Source: Myxococcota bacterium (GTDB taxonomy: Bacteria > Myxococcota_A > Polyangia > Polyangiales > Sandaracinaceae). Taken from it: DNA of 64,000 nt. The stretch lies in the NCBI GenBank assembly GCA_036149055.1, contig JAYZQJ010000178.1, positions 1-64,000 of the forward strand. Reading direction: 5' to 3'. This document shows positions 34,050 to 47,077 of the stretch, in pieces. Made by a program: the position numbers and the translations under genes. The notes beneath the pieces were generated by a model. The model searched no databases. It had not been told where the DNA came from and saw only the letters and a program-made list of their open reading frames with translations. Every line of letters begins with the position of its first letter. Positions within the stretch are counted from its first letter, which is position 1.

Positions 34050-35453
34050 CTAGACGGTCGGGAGCCGGACCCGCTTGGGGCGCGGATCGGCGCCGGGCGG
34101 CGGCTCGGGCAGGGTGCCGTCGGCTTCGTAGAGATCGGCCACCAGGTCGTAGGCGGCGGCCTTGGTCACGAACGCCTTGCGCACGTCGCCCGGGCGGGCG
34201 GTGCCGTTGGCGAGGTAGACCTTGCCGTCGATCTCGGGGGCCTGTCCCCACCAGCGGCCCTCGAGGAGCAGCTCGGACTCGTCGCTGATCCCCTCGACCA
34301 GGACCTCGACGTCGCGCCCGACCATCGCCTCCATCTTGCGCTTGGAGATCGGCCGCTGGGCGGCCATCAGCTTTCGGTGGCGCGAGGCCGCGACCTTGGC
34401 CGGGACCTGCGCGTCCATCTCGCCGGCCGCGGTGCCCTCCTCGACCGAGTAACGGAACACGCCGACCCGATCGAACTCGGCCCACCGCACGAAGTCGAGC
34501 AGCTCCTCGAAGTCCGCGTCGGTCTCGCCGGGGTGACCGACGATGAAGGCGGTGCGGAAGACCAGGTCGTCGATCTGGGTGCGCATCCGATCCACCACCC
34601 GCCGCAGCCGCTCGCCGCCGTGCCCGCGCTTCATGCGGCGCAGCATCGCGTCGGACGCGTGCTGGAGCGGCATGTCGACGTAAGGCAGCACCTTCGGGTG
34701 CTCGGCGAGCAGGGTGATCAGCGAGTCCTTGATGGTCTCGGGGTAGAGGTAGAAGAGCCGCACCCAGCGCAGCCCGGGCACCTCGGCCACCGCCTCGGCG
34801 AGCTTCGCGAGATCCGTCCCGTCCTTGAGGTCGCGGCCGTAGGCGATGGTGTCCTGGCTGATCAGGTTGATCTCGACCGTGCCGAGCTCCACCAGGCGCC
34901 GGACCTCCTCGACCACGTCGTCGATCGCGCGGCTGCGCTGCTTCCCGCGGAAGCTGGGGATCGTGCAGAAGGCGCACTGGCGGTTGCAGCCCTCGGCGAT
35001 CTTCACGTAGGCGCTGTGGTGGCCCTGCGAGAGCCGACGCGGATCGGTCGCGCGGAGCGTGTAGTCGGCCGGGTTGCCGACCATCATGCGGGGGGCGCCG
35101 CCCTGGTCGAGGATCGTCCCCAGCTTCAGCATGTCGCTCGAGCCGAGGAAGTGATCGACCTCGGGCATCTCCGAGGCGAGCTCCTCCGGGTAGCGCTGCG
35201 AGAGGCACCCGGCGACGACGAGCTTCTGGCACGAGCCCGTCTGCCGCAGCTCGCCCATCTCGAGGATGGTGTTGACCGACTCCTCCTTCGCCTCGTCGAT
35301 GAACCCGCAGGTGTTCACCACGATGACCTCGGCGTCTTCGGCGCGGTCGACGACGCGGTAGGCCCGCGTGTCCGACACCCCGAGCATCACCTCGGTGTCG
35401 ACCCGGTTCTTGGGGCACCCGAGGCTGATGAAGTGGATGGTCTTCTCGCTCAT
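34050..35453 (-). CDS. rimO: Ribosomal protein S12 methylthiotransferase RimO
   Basis: SLGCPKNRVDTE, NTCGFIDEAKEES, AGCLSQRY, YVKIAEGCNRQCAFCTIP, TRAM domain APEIDG. Confidence 0.95.
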   Translation of the reverse strand: MSEKTIHFISLGCPKNRVDTEVMLGVSDTRAYRVVDRAEDAEVIVVNTCGFIDEAKEESVNTILEMGELRQTGSCQKLVVAGCLSQRYPEELASEMPEVDHFLGSSDMLKLGTILDQGGAPRMMVGNPADYTLRATDPRRLSQGHHSAYVKIAEGCNRQCAFCTIPSFRGKQRSRAIDDVVEEVRRLVELGTVEINLISQDTIAYGRDLKDGTDLAKLAEAVAEVPGLRWVRLFYLYPETIKDSLITLLAEHPKVLPYVDMPLQHASDAMLRRMKRGHGGERLRRVVDRMRTQIDDLVFRTAFIVGHPGETDADFEELLDFVRWAEFDRVGVFRYSVEEGTAAGEMDAQVPAKVAASRHRKLMAAQRPISKRKMEAMVGRDVEVLVEGISDESELLLEGRWWGQAPEIDGKVYLANGTARPGDVRKAFVTKAAAYDLVADLYEADGTLPEPPPGADPRPKRVRLPTV

Positions 35454-35539: not shown

Positions 35540-36610
35540 ATGGGGAGCCGACCGAAGAAGTACGCGCTGGCGATCGAGCTGACGAGCTACTGCAATCAGA
35601 AGTGCGGCTACTGCTACAACGGCTGGCGCGACGACGGAGGCAAGTCGGTGGGCTCCTTGCCGTCGGATCGGCTCCTCGAGCTGGTCGACCGCGCGCTCAC
35701 CGAGGTGGACTTCGACCATGTCACCCTCACCGGCGGCGAGCCCTTCGCGCGGAAGGACGTCTTCGACGTGCTCGACGTCGTGAAGCGCCACAGCAAGCGC
35801 GCCAAGATCATCTCGAACGGCGGCCTCATCACCGACGCGCTCGCGGCGCGGCTCGCGCCGTATCGGCCGTACTTCGTTCAGATCACGCTCAACGGCGTCG
35901 AGAAGGCGACGCACGAGGCGCACGTCGGCGAGGGCCACTGGGAGGTCACGCTCGACGGCATCGAGGCGTGCCGCCGCGCCGGGGTCGCGGTCAGCGGGTG
36001 CGTGGTCGTGACCCGGAAGAACGCCGACCAGGTCGGCGCGATCCTCGATCTCTGGCGCTCCTTCGGCGTGAACGACATCGCGTTGAGCCGGTTCTCTCCC
36101 GCGGGCTACGCCTCGGCGCAGGTCGCGGAGCTGCTCTGCTCGCGCTCGGAGCTGATCGAGGCGCTGCGACAGGCCGACGCGCGCGGGCGCGAGCACGGCA
36201 CGCGCATCCAGGTGACGATGCCGACGCCGCAGTGCGTGATCGAGCACGCGGACTACCCGCACGTCACGTTCGGTGGCTGCCCCATCGGCACCGAGGCCCA
36301 GGAGCTCGCGCTCGGGCCGGACGGGGGCCTGCGCAACTGCACGCTGCACGAGGAGGTCATCGGGAACGCGGTCGACCACTCGTTCGCCGAGCTGGTCACC
36401 CGGCCCGCGGTCACCGCGTATCGCGACGTGACCGACGAGTTCTGCGCGCCGTGCCCGCTCAAGTCGAGCTGCCTCGGGGGCTGCGGCGCGGCCGCGCACT
36501 GGACGCTCGGCGAGGGGCGCCGCCTCGATCCCTTCGTCGCCCAGCACGTCGACGAGGGGTTCCGCCAGCGCCTCGCGAAGCAGCGCGCGCAGCTCCCCGT
36601 GCTGCCATGA
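35540..36610 (+). CDS. Radical SAM/SPASM-domain protein (PqqE/AlbA-like clade)
   Basis: ELTSYCNQKCGYC, TGGEPF, ISNG; SPASM Cys pattern GCPIG...NC...CAPCPLKSSCLGGC. Confidence 0.88.
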   Translation: MGSRPKKYALAIELTSYCNQKCGYCYNGWRDDGGKSVGSLPSDRLLELVDRALTEVDFDHVTLTGGEPFARKDVFDVLDVVKRHSKRAKIISNGGLITDALAARLAPYRPYFVQITLNGVEKATHEAHVGEGHWEVTLDGIEACRRAGVAVSGCVVVTRKNADQVGAILDLWRSFGVNDIALSRFSPAGYASAQVAELLCSRSELIEALRQADARGREHGTRIQVTMPTPQCVIEHADYPHVTFGGCPIGTEAQELALGPDGGLRNCTLHEEVIGNAVDHSFAELVTRPAVTAYRDVTDEFCAPCPLKSSCLGGCGAAAHWTLGEGRRLDPFVAQHVDEGFRQRLAKQRAQLPVLP

Positions 36611-38787
36611 CCCGGGTGCTCCTGCTCTGGCCGGGCTGCGAGGGGCCGGCGAGCGGCAACTTCGGGGTGCCGCAGCTCGTCCTGATGGCGACCCACGCCC
36701 GCGCGAAGACCGGCGCGCACATCGAGATCGTCGACCTCGCGGCGGAGCGATGCTTCGGGCCGGTCGACGTGGCGAAGCTCTTCGACGGCTGGGACGTCAT
36801 CGCCTTCAGCGTCTACTCGAGCTTCGACTTCCTGAAGTGCATGGCCCTCGCGGAGCTCGCCCGGGAGCTGAACCCGGACGCGCTCATCGCCGCCGGCGGC
36901 TACCACGCGAGCGCGCGCCCCACCGAGCACGTCTTCGACGGATCGCCGTTCGACGTGTGCGTGGTCGGGGAGGGCGAGAACGCGCTCGTGAAGATGATCG
37001 AGTCGGTCGAGGGCGGCGCGCCGCTCCGCGAGACGATCCTCGCCAGCGATCCGATCCTCGACCTCGACACGCTCCCGCCGAGCGACTGGACCTTCCTCGA
37101 TCGCTACAAGCCGATCGCGCGCAAGATGGCGTCGCAGGCCCAGGTGTATCTCTCCCGCGGCTGCCCGTTCGACTGCGCCTTCTGCATGGAGCGCGCGAAG
37201 AGGGAGGTGAGCTGGCGCAGCCTGTCGGTCGAGCGCGCGGTGCAAGAGATCGTGTCGCTCCACGCCTACCTCGATCTTCGAGGCTGGACCCTCTACGTCG
37301 CCGACGCGCTCTTCGGCATGAAGAAGAGCTGGCGGCGGGAGCTCCTCGCGGCGCTCGCGCGGGAGCGGGTGCCCGTCGACAAGCTCTGGCTGCTCATCCG
37401 GGTGGACCTCGTCGAGGACGAGGACCTGCGGCTCTTCGCGGAGGCGAACTGCGGGCTCGGCTTCGGCCTCGAGTCGGGCGACCCGCAGCTGCTCGCGACC
37501 ATTCGCAAGGCGGGCCGGCTCGACACCTACCTCGAGCGCATGAAGGAGGTCAGCGCCTGGGCGCGCGAGCACGACGTGCCGTGGGGCGCGAACATCATCT
37601 GCGGCCACCCGGGCGAGACGCCGGGCACGATGGAGCGGAGCGCGGCCTACATGCGCGAGCTCTTCCTCGACCCGAAGGGAGTCACCGGCTTCCTGAGCGT
37701 CGACCCCTTCCGGCTCTACCCGGGCTCGCCGATCGACGCCGAGCGGGGGCAGTGGGAGCAGCGCTTCGGGACCCGCTTCCATCGGCCCTCGTGGTGGGAC
37801 GACGGCGATCAGGCGTTCCTCGCGGAGTGGGTCGACCCGAGCGCCGACCTCGACTGGCGGGAGCGCACCCGGCTGCAGCACGCGCTCTACGGGCCCGTGC
37901 TCGCGCGCGTCGGAGAGAACTTCGTCTACCGCGGTCCGGCGCGTGACTACTTCCTGCGCGCGGTGCGGGACCAGGTGCAGCAGAGCGAGCCGCGAACCCG
38001 CGCGCACTACCTCGGCCGCTACTACGCGTGGCTCCGCTACCTGGGCTTCCGGGAGAAGGCGGAGCGGGTGCGCCGCGAGGACGCCGAGCTGCGGGACGTC
38101 GCGCGTCGGCGCCGCAAGGCGTGGCGCCCGATCGTGGCCGAGCGCGCGAAGCTCCCCGTCGACGACGCGTGGCTCGACCTCGTGGAGCGCGTCCCGCGCG
38201 AGCTCTTCGTGCCCGTCGACCAGGTGGCGGAGTCGACCCGCGACGAGGCCGTCCCTCTCGACGCCAGCGGTGCGGCCACCGTCAGCGCCATGCACGCCTA
38301 CGCCCGCTCCTTCTCCCTGCTGGGCGTGGAGCCGGGCATGACCGTGCTCGACCTGGGAGGCGGCAGCGGCTACGGCGCCGCGATCCTCGCCGAGCGCGTC
38401 GGCGCGGAGGGCCGCGTCGTCACCGTCGAGATCGACCCCGCCCTCACCGCGCGCGCCGCCGAGCTCTGCCCCGCCCAGGTCACCTGCGTCACCGGCGACG
38501 CCCTCGACGTCGACGCGTGGGGCGTCGACCCAGAGACGATCGACGCCGTCACCGTAGGCTTCGCCCTCCCCGAGCTCCCGCCCGCCTGGCTCGCCCGCCT
38601 CCGCCCCGGCGTCCGCATCCTCGCCCCGATCGGCGAAGGCGACACCCAGACCCTCCAACGCGTCACCGTCGGCGCCGGCGAAGAGACCTTCGAGCCCGTC
38701 CGCTACGTCCCCCTCCGCCGCGAAGCGCCCCCCGCGCCCAAGCCCCCGAGATCACGCGCCAAACGCCGCCTGCCCCTTCAAGACTGA
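36607..38787 (+). CDS. B12-binding radical SAM protein fused to a C-terminal protein-L-isoaspartate O-methyltransferase (PIMT/PCMT)-like domain
   Basis: B12 domain (AGGYHAS, VVGEGE), SRGCPFDCAFC, GLESG, GHPGET, YPGSP; then VPRELFVP, VLDLGGGSGYGAAILA, VTVEID, LRPG..LAPIG, VRYVPL; ATGA overlap with the SPASM gene. Confidence 0.88.
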   Translation: MTRVLLLWPGCEGPASGNFGVPQLVLMATHARAKTGAHIEIVDLAAERCFGPVDVAKLFDGWDVIAFSVYSSFDFLKCMALAELARELNPDALIAAGGYHASARPTEHVFDGSPFDVCVVGEGENALVKMIESVEGGAPLRETILASDPILDLDTLPPSDWTFLDRYKPIARKMASQAQVYLSRGCPFDCAFCMERAKREVSWRSLSVERAVQEIVSLHAYLDLRGWTLYVADALFGMKKSWRRELLAALARERVPVDKLWLLIRVDLVEDEDLRLFAEANCGLGFGLESGDPQLLATIRKAGRLDTYLERMKEVSAWAREHDVPWGANIICGHPGETPGTMERSAAYMRELFLDPKGVTGFLSVDPFRLYPGSPIDAERGQWEQRFGTRFHRPSWWDDGDQAFLAEWVDPSADLDWRERTRLQHALYGPVLARVGENFVYRGPARDYFLRAVRDQVQQSEPRTRAHYLGRYYAWLRYLGFREKAERVRREDAELRDVARRRRKAWRPIVAERAKLPVDDAWLDLVERVPRELFVPVDQVAESTRDEAVPLDASGAATVSAMHAYARSFSLLGVEPGMTVLDLGGGSGYGAAILAERVGAEGRVVTVEIDPALTARAAELCPAQVTCVTGDALDVDAWGVDPETIDAVTVGFALPELPPAWLARLRPGVRILAPIGEGDTQTLQRVTVGAGEETFEPVRYVPLRREAPPAPKPPRSRAKRRLPLQD

Positions 38788-38806
38788 GTCCCCGACCCGG
38801 GACTTT

Positions 38807-39068
38807 GGGACGGAGTTTCCTTGTTGCCGTCCCGCTGGCCTCTCCTCGAACCGGTCCCCATTGACGGACACCGGGACGGAGTTTCCTTGTTGCCTCCCGC
38901 GCGTCCCTCGGTTGAGACCCCTCGAATCCGTGCAGGACTGCGTCGAAGTCCCAACGAGTTCCCGGGCGTAGGCAAGGTGGGCAACAAGGAAACTCCGTCC
39001 CATGTACCTAGATCTTGGAGGGGGCTCGGGCTCGCGCCGCCGACTCGGCAACAAGGAAACTCCGTCCC
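38807..39068. repeat. Cluster of four identical 22-bp repeats GGGACGGAGTTTCCTTGTTGCC (two direct then two inverted), type A
   Basis: Copies at 38807-38828 and 38873-38894 (+), 38980-39001 and 39047-39068 (-); between convergent genes. Confidence 0.9.
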
Positions 39069-39074
39069 CGGGTT

Positions 39075-39938
39075 CTAGATTCTGGACGCGCGTGCGAGGA
39101 GGGTGGGGCGCTCGGCGGGGCGCTCGACGAGGGCGCGTCGGGTGGTCTCGTCGCAGAGGCCGAGCTCGGTGGCGGGGGCGAGCACGCTCGTGAGGTCGAG
39201 GGCGGCGAGCCAGGTCGCGTGGGCGTCGCGCAGCTTCGTCGAGGCGCGCTCGAGGGTCGTGGCGACCCGGGTGAGCGCCGCCCACTCGGCTCGGACGTAG
39301 CGGTGATCCTCCGCGGCGCGGCTCGCCTCGCGCACTTCGGCTTCGTGCATCGCGAGCACCGCGGGGCGCTCGGCGGCCAGCGCGCCCCAGTCGTCGGGCA
39401 CGCCCACCAGGATGCGGCGCGCGAAGGCCCGGCCGCGCGAGCCCAGGGCCCAGACGATCTCGACGTCCGCGTCGCGCAGCGCGCTCGAGAGGCGGCGCGC
39501 CTCTTCGAGCGGCTCGCGCAGGCGCTCCAGCCGGGCGGCGCACTCCGCGAGGAGCTCTCCGTGCCAGCACCCCGCGTACGCCGGCGCGGCGAGGGACACA
39601 CACGCCCGGAAGAGCTCGACCGGCTCGGAGCTCCGGACGCGCGCGAGCAGGCTCGGCGCCGAGACGTCACCCTCGCCCAGCTCGGTCATCGCCAGCGCCG
39701 CCGTGGCCCGCAGCTGGGCGATGTCACCGTAGAGCTCGGGCGTCGACTGCAAGATCAGCTCGCCCATCGACGCGATCACCGCCGCGTCTCGAGCGAGCGG
39801 CGCCCGCGCCGCCTCGGGCAAGCTCCGCTCGCTCCACGCCAGGTAGCGCGGGTCGTCCAGACGCTCCGGGCCCGGCAGCGGGAGATGCGCGAGCGCGTGG
39901 AGACAGAGCTGGGTGTAGTCGTTGGCGACGCGGAGCAA
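39075..39938 (-). CDS. Hypothetical protein, possibly a degenerate zincin-like fold
   Basis: Starts immediately after the peptide gene stop (TTG inferred); GRAF...ILVG...VLAMHEAEV...RAEWAAL. Confidence 0.55.
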   Translation of the reverse strand: MLRVANDYTQLCLHALAHLPLPGPERLDDPRYLAWSERSLPEAARAPLARDAAVIASMGELILQSTPELYGDIAQLRATAALAMTELGEGDVSAPSLLARVRSSEPVELFRACVSLAAPAYAGCWHGELLAECAARLERLREPLEEARRLSSALRDADVEIVWALGSRGRAFARRILVGVPDDWGALAAERPAVLAMHEAEVREASRAAEDHRYVRAEWAALTRVATTLERASTKLRDAHATWLAALDLTSVLAPATELGLCDETTRRALVERPAERPTLLARASRI

Positions 39939-39940
39939 GG

Positions 39941-40186
39941 TCAGGGCGCTTCGGGGTCTTCGGGTTCCGCGGGTGGCGTCTCGGGCTCCTCGGGTGAAAC
40001 GGGCGAGAGGCACGGCATCGGCGCTGGCCCGGGATCGCTCTCCTGGATCGGAGCGCTCAGGCAGGGGCCCGGCGGCGGGTCACGATCGTCGCAACCCGCA
40101 GCGACGGCGATGCCCGAGAGCGCCAGGCCGATCAGCCGGCTCCGGCGCGCCAGGATGGCGGCGCGATCTTCGTCGTCCGAGGCCAC
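39941..40186 (-). CDS. Small Asp/Pro-rich (lipo)peptide with two PCLS motifs; candidate precursor/substrate
   Basis: 81 aa; ARRSR + hydrophobic stretch + AAGC lipobox; GPCLSAP and MPCLSPV; TAGCGT 6 nt before the GTG. Confidence 0.7.
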   Translation of the reverse strand: MASDDEDRAAILARRSRLIGLALSGIAVAAGCDDRDPPPGPCLSAPIQESDPGPAPMPCLSPVSPEEPETPPAEPEDPEAP

Positions 40187-40218: not shown

Positions 40219-41712
40219 TCAAAGCTCCGGCCACGCGTCGACGCTCGCGCGGGCCTCCGCGTACCAGCGCCGCCACGCCTCGCGCACGCGACGATCGTCC
40301 GGGGGCAGCGTGGCCATCCACCGCCGCTCGCCTTCCTCGACCGCCCGCCGCATCGTCTCGCGATCGTCCTCGGCCATCACCCGCGCCGCCGCGCCGAAGA
40401 CCGCCGCCACCCGCCGCATCTCGCGCCCGCTCACTCGATCGAAGCGGTCTCGCGTGGTGTGGTAGGCGTCGTCGGTGAAGTGCCACCCGAGCACCGCGGG
40501 CAGCTGGCGGTCGAGGAACGGCACGTGGTCGCTCCCGCCCTCGAACGGGTTGGTGCGCCACCGCCACGGCCCGTCGAGCGCCTCCACCGCGCGCGCGCTC
40601 TCGAAGAGCAAGTCGTTGAGGAAGTGACCGCGGAGGTCGGCCTCGTCGACCTCGCCCGCGCCCCACTCGGTGTGCGCGTCGGGTGGACGGAGCCAGATCG
40701 CGCCCGGGTCCGGCATGCGCTCGATGAGGAACGGCGCGCCGGTCTCAGCAGGATCCTCGCCGACCATGTCGAGCACCAGGCCCGCGGCCACCGGCGCGTC
40801 GGTCTCCGCGAGCCACGCGCGCGAGACCTCGATCTCCTGGCCCCAGAGGAAGATCAGCGTGCGCCGGGCTGGCCGCCCCTGGAGCGCGACCGCGAGCTCG
40901 GCCAGCGCCGCGACCCCGCTCGCGTTGTCGTTGGCGCCGGGCTCGTCCGCGTGGGCCACGAACACGATCGCGCCCGCCGCCGGATCGGTCCCGGGGACGC
41001 GCGCCTCGACCGCCGTCGCTCGCGACTCGCCGACCGCCACGTCGATCTCGACCTCGACCCGCGCGTCCGTCACCGCGGCGAGCGCGCGGTAGTCCGCGTC
41101 GGAGAGCGAGAAGCCGATCCCTCCCGGCACGTAGCCGAACTGCGCGCTCTCCGGGTACCGCTCCGGCTGATGATAGGGCTCGAGGTTCCGCACCAGCAGC
41201 CCCGCCGCCCCGTTCGGCTCGACCAGCTCGGCGTACAGGGCGCGCGGCGATCCCACGCCGAGGATGAGCTTGCCCCGCGCGTCGGCCCCGCGTCGGACCG
41301 CGTCGGCGTGTACGACGTCGAGCTCACCGCGAAAGGACTCCGAGCCCACGAGCAGCGCCGCGCGATCCACCCCGGTCTCGTCCTCGAACGCGATCAGCGC
41401 GCGGCCGTCCAGCGCGAGCCGCGCCGACCGGGGCGTCCACGTGGGGCGGGCCGGTCCGAGCTGGATCCGGCGCACCGCCTCGAGCCCACCGCGCCGCAGC
41501 TCGGTCTCCACGCGCTCGAGGGTCTTCTGGTAGCCCTCGTTGCCGCGCACGCGGAAGAAGCGATCGACGTAGCGCACGGTGTCGAGCGCGGCCTCGGCGC
41601 GAAAGGCGGCGTGGACGTCGCGCGCGTGCCCCGCGACGCGATCGGAGGGAGCGGCCGAGGGGGCTCCCGGGCCGGCGCACGCGAGCAAGAGGAGCGGCCA
41701 GATCCATCGCAC
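40219..41712 (-). CDS. M28 family metallo-aminopeptidase (lipoprotein, PA-like insert)
   Basis: AHADEPGANDNASG, WGQEIE, LDMVG, SDHVPF, YHTTRD; signal LLLAC. Confidence 0.85.
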   Translation of the reverse strand: MRWIWPLLLLACAGPGAPSAAPSDRVAGHARDVHAAFRAEAALDTVRYVDRFFRVRGNEGYQKTLERVETELRRGGLEAVRRIQLGPARPTWTPRSARLALDGRALIAFEDETGVDRAALLVGSESFRGELDVVHADAVRRGADARGKLILGVGSPRALYAELVEPNGAAGLLVRNLEPYHQPERYPESAQFGYVPGGIGFSLSDADYRALAAVTDARVEVEIDVAVGESRATAVEARVPGTDPAAGAIVFVAHADEPGANDNASGVAALAELAVALQGRPARRTLIFLWGQEIEVSRAWLAETDAPVAAGLVLDMVGEDPAETGAPFLIERMPDPGAIWLRPPDAHTEWGAGEVDEADLRGHFLNDLLFESARAVEALDGPWRWRTNPFEGGSDHVPFLDRQLPAVLGWHFTDDAYHTTRDRFDRVSGREMRRVAAVFGAAARVMAEDDRETMRRAVEEGERRWMATLPPDDRRVREAWRRWYAEARASVDAWPEL

Positions 41713-41776: not shown

Positions 41777-42631
41777 ATGGCCAAGAAGAAGCGCAAGAAG
41801 GACAAGAAGCGGAAGAAGAAGATCGCTTCGACCGCCGACCGTCACGACCTGTATCAGCGCAGCGTCCAGAACCCCGACTTCGAGGTCGAGCTCGCCGACA
41901 GCTACTTCCGGCGCCGCGTGGGTCGGAAGCCGCTGACGCTGCTCGAGGACTTCTGCGGCACCGCGCTCCTCTGCGCCGAGTGGGTCAAGTCGGACCCGAA
42001 CCGCGAGGCCACCGGGGTCGACATCTCCGGCGAGGTGCTCGGGTGGGGCCGCGAGCACAACATCGTGCCGCTGGGCGACGACGCGGCGCGGGTGAACCTG
42101 GTCGAGGGCGACGTGCGCACCGTGCACGACCAGAAGTTCGACGTGCTGATGGCGCTCAACTACTCGTACTTCTGCTTCCAGGATCGCCCGACGCTCCGCG
42201 GCTACTTCGAGGCGGCGCGCCAGAACCTCGCCGAGGACGGGCTCCTCTTCCTCGATCTCTTCGGCGGCTGGGAGTCGGTGCAGGAGCTCGAGGAGGAGCG
42301 GGACTGCGAGGACTTCTGGTACATCTGGCACCAGGCCAAGTACGACCCGATCCAGAGCCACTTCCTCGGCCACATCCACTTCCGGTTCAAAGACGGAAGC
42401 AAGCTGAAGAAGGCCTTCACCTACGACTGGCGCCTCTGGAACATCCGCGAGCTGCGCGAGCTGCTCGAGGAGGCCGGCTTCTCGCACACCGAGGTGCTGT
42501 GGGAAGACGAGGACGAGGACGGCGAGGGCAACGGCGTCTACCGCCCGCGCGAGAAGGTCGGCAACGACCCCGGCTGGAACGCCTACATCCTCGCCAGCGT
42601 CGACACGCCGAAGAAGCTCAAGAAGGGATAG
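41777..42631 (+). CDS. Class I SAM-dependent methyltransferase
   Basis: EDFCGTA motif I, GVDIS, EGDV, FDVLMALNYS, GLLFLD, LLEEAGF. Confidence 0.8.
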   Translation: MAKKKRKKDKKRKKKIASTADRHDLYQRSVQNPDFEVELADSYFRRRVGRKPLTLLEDFCGTALLCAEWVKSDPNREATGVDISGEVLGWGREHNIVPLGDDAARVNLVEGDVRTVHDQKFDVLMALNYSYFCFQDRPTLRGYFEAARQNLAEDGLLFLDLFGGWESVQELEEERDCEDFWYIWHQAKYDPIQSHFLGHIHFRFKDGSKLKKAFTYDWRLWNIRELRELLEEAGFSHTEVLWEDEDEDGEGNGVYRPREKVGNDPGWNAYILASVDTPKKLKKG

Positions 42632-46466: not shown

Positions 46467-47077
46467 TGGGACGGAGTTTCCTTGTTTCCGAGCGCGCGTG
46501 GTTTCCGCTCGGCGGTCGAGGCCCCGGCGCCCCGGGACGGAGTTTCTTCGTTTCCCAGTGCGCGCTCCTGGCCGCCCTCGCGCTCAGCGGCTGCGCGCGC
46601 AACGCCATCTTCGAGCTGGAGCTCGACCTCCCCGCGCAGCCCGCCGGCCCCGCGCTCTACGCCGTCGTCCAGGCGCGCCCGGTCGGCGGCGCGGACTGGG
46701 ACACCCTCGACGCGCTCCCGGGCGTGCCCCTCTGCGCGCGCGCCAGCGAGGGCCCCTGCGACGACCGGGTGCTCGACCCCGCCTGCGCGGCCGTCCTCAG
46801 CGTCGTAGCCGACGAGTCGGAGCTCGACGTCCCCCTCGAGGTCCGCGTCCGCTACTGCGAAGACCCGAGCTGCGCCACGGACCCCGCCGCGCCCGAGCAT
46901 CTGATCGACGTAGAGCGCCCCTTCTATCGAGGCCGATACACCCAGGCCCGCGTCTGCCTCGACGACGTCGCCCCCGGCCGGGAGACCCTCGAGCGCTGCG
47001 AAGTCCGCTGCCGCGAAGGCACCGTCTCCAGCTACTGCCGCCTCGACGGCACCCACTTCTGCGAGCCCCCGAACTAG
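46466..47077 (+). CDS. Cys-containing lipoprotein whose signal peptide carries two in-frame repeat copies
   Basis: TGATG coupling to the upstream gene; MGRSFLVS...PGRSFFVSQCALLAALALSGC. Confidence 0.7.
   Translation: MGRSFLVSERAWFPLGGRGPGAPGRSFFVSQCALLAALALSGCARNAIFELELDLPAQPAGPALYAVVQARPVGGADWDTLDALPGVPLCARASEGPCDDRVLDPACAAVLSVVADESELDVPLEVRVRYCEDPSCATDPAAPEHLIDVERPFYRGRYTQARVCLDDVAPGRETLERCEVRCREGTVSSYCRLDGTHFCEPPN
46468..46555 (+). repeat. Two degenerate type-A repeats (GGGACGGAGTTTCYTYGTTTCC), 66 bp apart, inside a CDS
   Basis: 46468-46489 gggacggagtttccttgtttcc; 46534-46555 gggacggagtttcttcgtttcc. Confidence 0.8.

Follow-up and report, generated by a model that had tools for sequence, protein, structure and literature searches.

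A Conserved B12-Binding, Radical SAM and Isoaspartyl Methyltransferase-Type Fusion of Myxococcota and Its Probable Pro-Cys-Leu Lipoprotein Precursors

Why would a cobalamin-binding radical S-adenosylmethionine (SAM) enzyme carry, in the same polypeptide, a methyltransferase domain of the protein-L-isoaspartate O-methyltransferase (PIMT) type, and on what would such an enzyme act? The question is raised by a 64,000-nucleotide stretch of DNA from a Myxococcota bacterium of the family Sandaracinaceae (assembly GCA_036149055.1, contig JAYZQJ010000178.1, positions 1 to 64,000; hereafter the window), in which a gene at 36607..38787 (+), encoding protein P0001, joins a B12-binding, a radical SAM and a PIMT domain. 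The reading that we favor, at a rough probability of 0.6, is that this fusion is a genuine, conserved three-domain enzyme which, together with the radical SAM/SPASM enzyme encoded directly upstream, matures co-encoded lipoprotein-type precursors built on Pro-Cys-Leu repeats. Precursor, SPASM enzyme, fusion and an accessory protein form a four-gene cassette that is compact, phylum-wide and directly testable.

One Frame, Three Domains

The genome has a G+C content of 74%, at which long spurious open reading frames (ORFs) are frequent; the frame of the fusion was hence checked by its G+C content at third codon positions (GC3). The translation of 36607-38787 (+) gives a single frame of 726 codons with no internal stop; its GC3 is 0.95 overall and remains between 0.92 and 1.00 throughout in that one frame, the domain junctions being crossed without any frame switch. 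The start codon (ATG at 36607) and the stop codon of the gene before it (35540-36610) share an ATGA tetranucleotide (36607-36610), and the alignment of the homologues to the fusion begins at residue 2 or 3.

Three Pfam domains stand above their curated cut-offs: a Rossmann-type B12-binding domain at residues 31-128 (36697..36990, +; PF02310, 39.6 bits for a cut-off of 32.1), a radical SAM core at residues 181-346 (37147..37644, +; PF04055, 54.1 bits for 29.5) and a PIMT/PCMT-type methyltransferase domain at residues 519-704 (38161..38718, +; PF01135, 95.7 bits for 20.3). Between the last two lies a post-radical-SAM or linker region (residues 347-518; 37645..38160, +), helical in the structural model and marked by the invariant residues W396, W397, G400, D401 and W475. 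An earlier reading of the window from its sequence alone (the sequence-only reading) had described such a three-domain ORF, with a PIMT-like part starting at about 38190 and the motifs CPFDCAFC, VPRELFVP, VLDLGGGSGYGAA, VEID and VRYVPL; the ORF is real, the PCMT match begins close to the proposed figure, and every one of these motifs is present, the last four in the PIMT-like part.

Invariance is counted here over 59 family members aligned to the fusion. In the B12-binding domain, G97, G98 and Y99 are invariant; the radical SAM cluster motif CPFDCAFC (C186-x3-C190-x2-C193, nucleotides 37162-37185) keeps its cysteines in 59/59, as does the whole segment from S183 to R199 (SRGCPFDCAFCMERAKR). 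The AlphaFold2 model computed with this alignment is confident, with a mean predicted local distance difference test (pLDDT) of 91.1 and a predicted template modeling score of 0.86. Searched with Foldseek, its N-terminal two thirds match TsrM, CysS, TokK and MgmA (E values from 6e-18 to 5e-15), with OxsB and AprD4 also among the matches, and its C-terminal third superposes on 2yxe_B (template modeling (TM) score by target 0.84, root-mean-square deviation (rmsd) 2.3 Å, 29% identity) and on the E. coli PIMT 3lbf_A (TM score 0.84, 32% identity). The protein ends only 22 residues past the PCMT match (704 of 726), and its tail (715-726) is disordered, with a pLDDT below 50.

Conservation and Distribution of the Fusion

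The sequence-only reading had itself raised the possibility of a one-off assembly or stop-loss artefact. In an artefact, two genes would have been joined through the loss of a stop codon, through a frameshift or by faulty assembly. We searched 5.8 billion clustered proteins, and the figures given here refer to the best 120 clusters: all 120, at 59-100% identity, combine Radical_SAM and PCMT (PF04055 and PF01135), and 119 also contain the B12-binding domain (PF02310), the exception being a truncated entry of 599 residues. One of these clusters, with 14 member sequences, is 100% identical to the fusion. The public names of the homologues are limited to "radical SAM protein", "B12-binding domain-containing radical SAM protein" and "protein-L-isoaspartate O-methyltransferase". 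We also collected 80 loci, which are the best 80 of 91 relative-encoding stretches in contigs sampled at one genome per species; their fusion relatives are 47-74% identical, most of them matching in one frame from residue 2-3 to about 700-726, and the titles of the records name Nannocystaceae, Polyangiaceae, Sandaracinaceae, Enhygromyxa, Paraliomyxa or generic Myxococcales and Deltaproteobacteria metagenome-assembled genomes.

In an even sample of the phylum Myxococcota, the fusion finds matches (E ≤ 1e-30) in 50 of 401 genomes; when counted over the high-quality genomes, they amount to 45 of 340, and over genera to 37 of 254. These matches fall into two grades, one at 42-83% identity and the other at 33-39% identity and extending to about residue 676, inside the PIMT domain. 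A genome of the same genus matches residues 1-726 at 83% identity, and the fusion is present as a single copy in the genome of the window. A fusion of this kind is widespread but patchy in Myxococcota, and purifying selection acts on all three of its domains. To an artefact we give virtually no credence: the uniform GC3 in a single frame speaks against it, and it is refuted by the identical 14-member cluster along with 119 further fused clusters, by the one-frame fusion in 80 independent genomes and by the matches in the sampled genomes of the phylum, the full-length one in the same-genus genome among them.

An exhaustive profile-free search of representatives at 50% identity recovered fused forms down to 32-35% identity. 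The sister clade represented by P0138 and P0136 is of similar length and 42% identical up to residue 475, so far sharing the linker region (seen in P0138), while the last 250 residues of these proteins match nothing in Pfam and do not resemble the PIMT domain. More distant B12-radical SAM proteins (P0181, P0193 and P0195; about 32-35% identity in the radical SAM part) have a C-terminal cyclophilin-type peptidyl-prolyl isomerase (PPIase) in place of the PIMT domain. Such proteins point to a larger group in which B12-radical SAM enzymes are fused to domains that handle proteins.

The SPASM Partner Gene

The gene that overlaps the fusion at its start (35540..36610, +) encodes a radical SAM/SPASM protein of 356 residues (P0272) with matches to PF04055 and Fer4_12. 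It contains a CNQKCGYC motif and the full SPASM motif CAPCPLKSSCLGGC, that is to say the CxxCxxxxxCxxxC motif of auxiliary clusters. Many SPASM families of NCBIfam match it, none at its family cut-off, the best being ScmE at 97 bits for a cut-off of 400. By tblastn, 78 of the 80 loci have a SPASM gene immediately upstream of the fusion, and both misses correspond to contig ends. The same is true of all 12 further loci that we drew from the sampled Myxococcota genomes, ten of which are only 33-37% identical to the fusion; the two sets together make up the 92 loci referred to below. When the genes that neighbor the fusion in the window were searched in the 80 loci by tblastn, the accessory gene was found in 37 and an 81-residue ORF with Pro-Cys-Leu-Ser (PCLS) motifs in 22.

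A Family of Candidate Pro-Cys-Leu Precursors

This small ORF (39941-40186, −) has the features of a lipoprotein-type precursor. Its 81 residues consist, in order, of an acidic N-terminus, the segment D-R-A-A-I-L-A-R-R, a hydrophobic stretch that closes with the lipobox A-A-G-C, and a Pro-rich tail with two P-C-L-S motifs. Motif scans recovered 51 precursor candidates in the window and 38 of the related loci, frequently as paralogues in tandem, with a common leader and two to nine repeats each. When the repeats are aligned on their Cys (position 0), Pro occupies position −3 in 90% and position −1 in 74%, and Leu occupies position +1 in 95%; position +2 is variable (S/K/E/D/R) and is followed by V/P/I at +3, A/P at +4, and P at both +5 and +6. 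A hydrophobic residue follows 243 of the 254 post-signal Cys, the remaining 11 being lipobox cysteines, and Leu at +1 makes up 95% of all 254, a figure that has to be read with the selection of the candidates in mind, as at least two motifs were required. In the repeat profile P-x-P-C-L-x, no position has Asp above 15%, and neither Asp nor Glu is conserved; in the core of the window's own precursor, Asp mostly stands directly before Pro. The Arg-Arg pair of the leader was required by the search expression, and a scan from which this requirement had been lifted also yields Arg-Lys there.

In a distant subfamily the repeat becomes [VI]-G-P-C-L; in 6 of 10 such loci, the gene with these repeats immediately precedes the SPASM gene and has the same orientation. 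Since these distant repeats keep P-C-L, we take P-C-L to be the invariant core. With a looser filter, a precursor ORF lies within 5 kb of the enzyme pair in 60 of the 92 loci, and in 45 of the 63 loci with 3 kb or more on each side. Applied to the 9.9 Mb of the window's own genome, this filter selects 28 ORFs, which corresponds to about 0.04 expected per locus; the linkage is thus about 18 times the background expectation. In three loci missed by the looser filter (L034, L036 and L038), precursors had been found by the earlier filters. The position of the precursor gene varies: it is located between the two enzyme genes in several close loci and is convergent downstream of them in others, the window included. 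With a stricter motif and the leader, the genome of the window also shows two unlinked precursors (C248:27677-29140, +, and C121:20595-20993, −), one of which has four repeats of the P-C-L-x-A-P-I-D-A-G type.

A conserved leader, a repeated core and linkage to enzyme genes, with leader binding predicted by modeling, are what is looked for in ribosomally synthesized, post-translationally modified peptides (RiPPs); this family resembles them in these respects. The sequence-only reading had named the PCLS peptide as a substrate to be assayed; that the fusion belongs to a locus for peptide or protein modification, with this peptide as its likely substrate, holds in outline, through the linkage, the shared leader and repeats and the predicted binding.

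Predicted Recognition of the Leader

We predicted the complex of the fusion, supplied with its alignment, and the 81-residue precursor. The three runs reached ipSAE scores of 0.79, 0.75 and 0.17 (median 0.75), whereas the best of three controls scored 0.00; in the calibration of this score, 116 of 157 solved complexes and 2 of 215 mismatched pairs came up to this mark. At least 37% of the contacts agree between runs, and the pLDDT of the partner is at least 44. The prediction supports binding of the precursor to the fusion, short of demonstrating it.

The confident contacts would involve precursor residues 3-29, namely the leader and the hydrophobic stretch, which are placed against the B12-binding domain, the helical linker and the start of the PIMT domain. 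On the side of the fusion, the predicted interface comprises residues 44, 47-48, 52-53, 55 and 76-77 and 80-81 in the B12-binding domain (44-81), 398-402 along with 474, 477-480 and 482 in the linker (398-402 and 474-482), and 538 and 553 in the first part of the PIMT domain. Within this interface or next to it, D43, E47, L76, W396, W397, G400, D401 and W475 are invariant in 59/59, and L44, D399 and G480 of the interface are nearly so. In the model, conserved acidic residues face the conserved arginines of the leader, which would fit leader recognition. This is a probable case of a leader recognized without a separate recognition domain.

Probable Competence of the PIMT Domain

The PIMT domain can be aligned with four solved PIMTs (2yxe, 4o29, 3lbf and 4l7v; phmmer, E 8e-17). 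The sequence-only reading had seen altered specificity in the sequence TVSAMHAY, at the place of the usual TISAP/TISQP. This suggestion does not stand: TVSAMHA aligns residue for residue with TISAIHM of the M. jannaschii enzyme (2yxe) and with TISAPHM of the P. aerophilum enzyme (4o29), within the normal range of the family. Thirteen residues of the domain (R531, E532, D546, S560, A561, H563, A564, Y565, G584, G586, G588, G590 and E608) are invariant in 59/59, five of them, S560 to Y565, in this very motif. Position 558 is Thr in 51 members, Ser in 7 and Ala in 1, and never His. This position is of importance in PCMTD1, a PIMT-fold protein that is reported to bind AdoMet and isoAsp with no methylation, and in which the corresponding Thr is His, a change reported to block catalysis (PMC12590147). 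Because the catalytic and SAM-binding motifs are invariant, a second methyl transfer by the PIMT domain appears more likely, judging from sequence, than a pure docking role.

The fusion is not the housekeeping Pcm. It scores 80.2 bits with the housekeeping PIMT equivalogs, under cut-offs of 159-282 (TIGR00080, 159.05; NF001453, 188), and the genome also encodes a stand-alone canonical Pcm, with 198 bits for TIGR00080 and 214 bits for NF001453 (cut-off 188).

Proposed Function and Alternative Explanations

We propose that the fusion would grasp the conserved leader of the precursor (D-R-A-A-I-L-A-R-R and the hydrophobic stretch) by a surface that the model assigns to the B12-binding domain, the helical linker (W396, W397, D399, G400, D401 and W475) and the first part of the PIMT domain; this is predicted to take place in the cytoplasm, before export and lipidation. 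By analogy with the class B radical SAM methylases, the N-terminal half would then methylate an unactivated carbon, within P-C-L or beside it, by means of methylcobalamin and a 5'-deoxyadenosyl radical; the C-terminal half, given its intact SAM-binding and substrate-pocket motifs, would catalyze a second methyl transfer that is polar and depends on SAM. Candidate acceptors for this second methyl group are the variable Asp/Glu residues, the Cys thiol, or a group made by the radical enzymes. Pushed further, the proposal would describe a new class of ribosomally encoded, radical-SAM-modified lipoproteins in Myxococcota, in which the export signal doubles as the leader of the maturase, the Pro-Cys-Leu repeats are rebuilt by the SPASM and B12-radical SAM enzymes, and the PIMT domain has taken on the methylation of a target other than (iso)Asp, for instance the Cys sulfur or a radical-made carboxylate; we consider this wider version possible, if rather doubtful.

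One has to keep in mind several points that weigh against the maturation of the precursors by the fusion. Every catalytic step is inferred. Some cobalamin radical SAM enzymes, such as OxsB and AprD4, are not methylases. One of the three complex runs reached only 0.17 and the fold of the partner is uncertain (pLDDT 44-48), the P-C-L-S motifs are placed in neither active site, and the presence of the hydrophobic signal segment in the predicted interface makes non-specific binding possible. Part of the Cys-Leu enrichment and all of the Arg-Arg conservation are there by construction, and the looser filter leaves 32 of the 92 loci with no precursor within 5 kb, 18 of these being among the 63 whose flanks both extend to 3 kb or more. 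As for the PIMT domain, the core has no conserved Asp or Glu, hence no obvious fixed acceptor for a carboxyl methylation of the PIMT type, most Asp residues of the window's own core precede Pro, and intact SAM motifs are no proof of catalysis, as PCMTD1 illustrates (PMC12590147).

A rival explanation, close to an alternative named in the sequence-only reading (the PIMT fold as a substrate-binding module), is that the PIMT domain is, as in PCMTD1, a non-catalytic docking or recognition module that would hold the leader or the Pro-rich precursor and might depend on SAM to do so, only the B12-radical SAM half being catalytic. The core motif indeed offers no conserved carboxylate, two residues in the first part of the domain (538 and 553) take part in the predicted contact with the leader, another protein-handling domain, the cyclophilin PPIase, occupies the same position in P0181, P0193 and P0195, P0138 has an unrelated C-terminus in place of the PIMT domain, and PCMTD1 is a PIMT fold with intact AdoMet motifs that serves as a pure recognition module (PMC12590147). 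We nevertheless hold it for unlikely, as the signature residues of the catalytic pocket and of the SAM site are all invariant in 59/59, the Thr that PCMTD1 has lost to His is Thr or Ser in 58 of the 59 members, and most of the confident contacts of the complex fall elsewhere than in the PIMT domain. That the fusion acts instead on another protein, a lipid or a small molecule, the gene linkage being incidental or regulatory, would account for the loci devoid of a nearby precursor under the filter used and for the two unlinked precursor genes in the window's own genome; moreover, CysS, TokK and TsrM, its closest structural relatives, act on small molecules or carrier-bound substrates. We find it quite improbable in view of a linkage about 18 times above background, which persists at 33-37% identity, where the flank differs and P-C-L is kept, and of a complex prediction that passes its controls with invariant residues at the interface.

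The sequence-only reading had offered, as an example, radical C-methylation combined with carboxyl O-methylation of one and the same Asp, which would resemble the aspartimide/isoAsp-type chemistry of RiPP-associated PIMT homologues. The best NCBIfam matches of the fusion do include the peptide methyltransferases of the FxLD and ATP-grasp systems, and Asp is frequent in the spacers of many precursors (P-I-D-A-G or D-V-G-P-C-L, for example). Yet the only conserved motif of the core is P-x-P-C-L (G-P-C-L in the distant subfamily), the repeat has no Asp kept at a fixed position, the cores of Nannocystaceae type often have no Asp near the motif, and the Asp residues of the window's precursor mostly precede Pro, in which case a succinimide cannot form. 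The scores are also far under the family cut-offs (TIGR04364, FxLD, 83.5 for 320; TIGR04188, ATP-grasp, 71.4 for 380), and a protein that ends 22 residues past its PIMT domain has no room for the C-terminal domain of these homologues. Methylation twice on one Asp is, for these reasons, very improbable, and the reading that we keep is the maturation of the precursors, with a PIMT domain whose catalytic motifs are intact and which has no obvious Asp substrate. If its methylation of a residue other than (iso)Asp were true, it would represent both a new reaction of the PIMT family and a new modification of cell-envelope proteins.

Relation to Known Systems

The class B radical SAM methylases (TsrM, CysS, TokK, MgmA/QCMT; TIGR04013, TIGR04014) share with the fusion an N-terminal Rossmann B12 domain followed by a radical SAM barrel with CxxxCxxC, and they provide both its best fold matches and its best radical SAM family matches. 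The fusion differs from them by NCBIfam scores far under the cut-offs (80.2 for 251 with TIGR04013), by a C-terminal PIMT domain that the matched solved enzymes do not have, and by its predicted substrate, a leader-bearing lipoprotein precursor. With Pcm/PIMT (PF01135, TIGR00080) it shares the full fold (TM score 0.84, rmsd 2.3-2.5 Å) and the motifs VPRE, T-[VI]-S-A-x-H, GxGxGYG, acidic post-I and V-x-Y-V-P, which are kept and largely invariant; the differences are that the domain sits behind a radical SAM enzyme and that the predicted substrate has no conserved isoAsp-prone or Asp position. As regards the SPASM partner, the ranthipeptide maturase PapB and QhpD are SPASM enzymes that act on several Cys-containing repeats or on a subunit modified before export, a situation reminiscent of ours, but P0272 has no family-level match, its putative substrate has no conserved acceptor beside Leu, and the cassette contains an additional B12-radical SAM/PIMT enzyme.

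PIMT-fold methyltransferases have been recruited to loci for ribosomal peptide modification in other systems, under the name of PAMTs (OlvSA and the enzymes of lasso peptides, graspetides, imiditides and pamtides). According to two publications (PMC10787088, PMC11285071), PAMTs are stand-alone proteins with a common C-terminal domain that act on a conserved Asp, whereas the fusion has no room for such a domain and its predicted core motif has no Asp. Because of these two features and of its low scores with the PAMT families, the fusion lies outside the RiPP-associated PAMT group as defined in print. The pamtide paper also mentions 249 clusters in which two genes encode a radical SAM enzyme and a PAMT and in which its authors found no precursor; the co-occurrence is similar, but the genes are separate, the PAMTs were selected for their C-terminal domain, and Streptomyces is among the sources (PMC10787088). 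PCMTD1, a substrate receptor of cullin-RING ligases, likewise joins a PIMT fold with intact AdoMet motifs to another machine for protein recognition; it differs in being eukaryotic, in recognizing isoAsp and in being inactive through the Thr-to-His change, which is absent from the fusion (PMC12590147).

The two enzyme families joined in the fusion have been well studied. A full-text literature search returned nothing on B12-radical SAM enzymes fused to a PIMT domain or on lipoproteins with Pro-Cys-Leu repeats, and looking up terms in the 2026 aspartimide review (PMC13001092), in the imiditide preprint and in the RiPP methyltransferase review (PMC11285071) brought up no such fusion. The sequence-only reading had allowed for an architecture already functionally characterized; this search brought up no such characterization. 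We thus rate the fusion as an uncharacterized variant of radical-SAM peptide or protein maturation, the product of which may remain a lipoprotein rather than become a released peptide. The cassette brings with it a precursor family with a very simple repeated motif, and its chemistry, once worked out, could add a new reaction to the enzymology of cobalamin radical SAM or PIMT enzymes; the envelope lipoproteins of myxobacteria could also turn out to carry a new covalent modification.

The Accessory Protein

The fourth gene of the cassette (39075-39950, −), mostly convergent just downstream of the fusion, encodes a conserved protein of about 290 residues. The longest ORF (39075-40013, −) shares 73 bases (39941-40013) with the 3' end of the precursor gene; the true start is probably further downstream, because the homologues do not align to the first 20-odd residues. 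In an alignment of 22 sequences, G173, R174, G183, H202, E203 and V206 are invariant. The structural model is confident (pLDDT 94.2), and the protein has no match in Pfam or NCBIfam and none in a Foldseek search of the PDB with E ≤ 1. Its VIA matches are weak and to zincin-like proteins, the best one being the HExxH domain of ChlB (8s5f; Z score 5.4, 163 residues, rmsd 4.4 Å), a score below the meaningful level of the tool; when compared with HExxH, only H202-E203 is invariant and there is no second His in register. A search of the ESM Atlas retrieved generic helical clusters only, the Atlas's own model of the protein being poor.

A link to the fusion comes from P0131, a protein of 1062 residues that is 41% identical to the fusion over residues 18-718 and in which the accessory protein forms a fourth, C-terminal domain after the B12-binding, radical SAM and PIMT domains. 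Its C-terminus matches the accessory profile with an hhalign probability of 98.2% (E 4e-14, 246 columns), and this natural fusion argues that the accessory protein works with the enzyme. The C-terminus of another longer relative, P0139, has no significant match to the same profile (probability 2%).

Other Features of the Locus

The genes on either side do not appear to belong to the cassette. A RimO gene (ribosomal protein S12 methylthiotransferase; 34050-35453, −; TIGR01125, 487 bits for a cut-off of 357) is divergent from it and was rejected as a member, with a match in 1 of the 80 related loci. An M28-family peptidase with a signal-like N-terminus (40219-41712, −), a class I methyltransferase (41777-42631, +) and the other flanking ORFs were rejected too, with matches in 0 of the 80. 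Over the whole window, Rfam gave no family at its gathering score, and no cobalamin riboswitch. Between the fusion and the accessory gene, the intergenic region 38787-39075, 3' of the fusion, contains four copies of an element of 21-22 bases with the core GGACGGAGTTTCCTTGTTGCC, two direct (38808 and 38874) and two inverted (38980 and 39047), another copy being located at 46469. With up to 2 mismatches, the genome has 63 copies of this element on 25 contigs, and it looks like a dispersed repeat of the repetitive extragenic palindrome (REP) or miniature inverted-repeat transposable element (MITE) kind.

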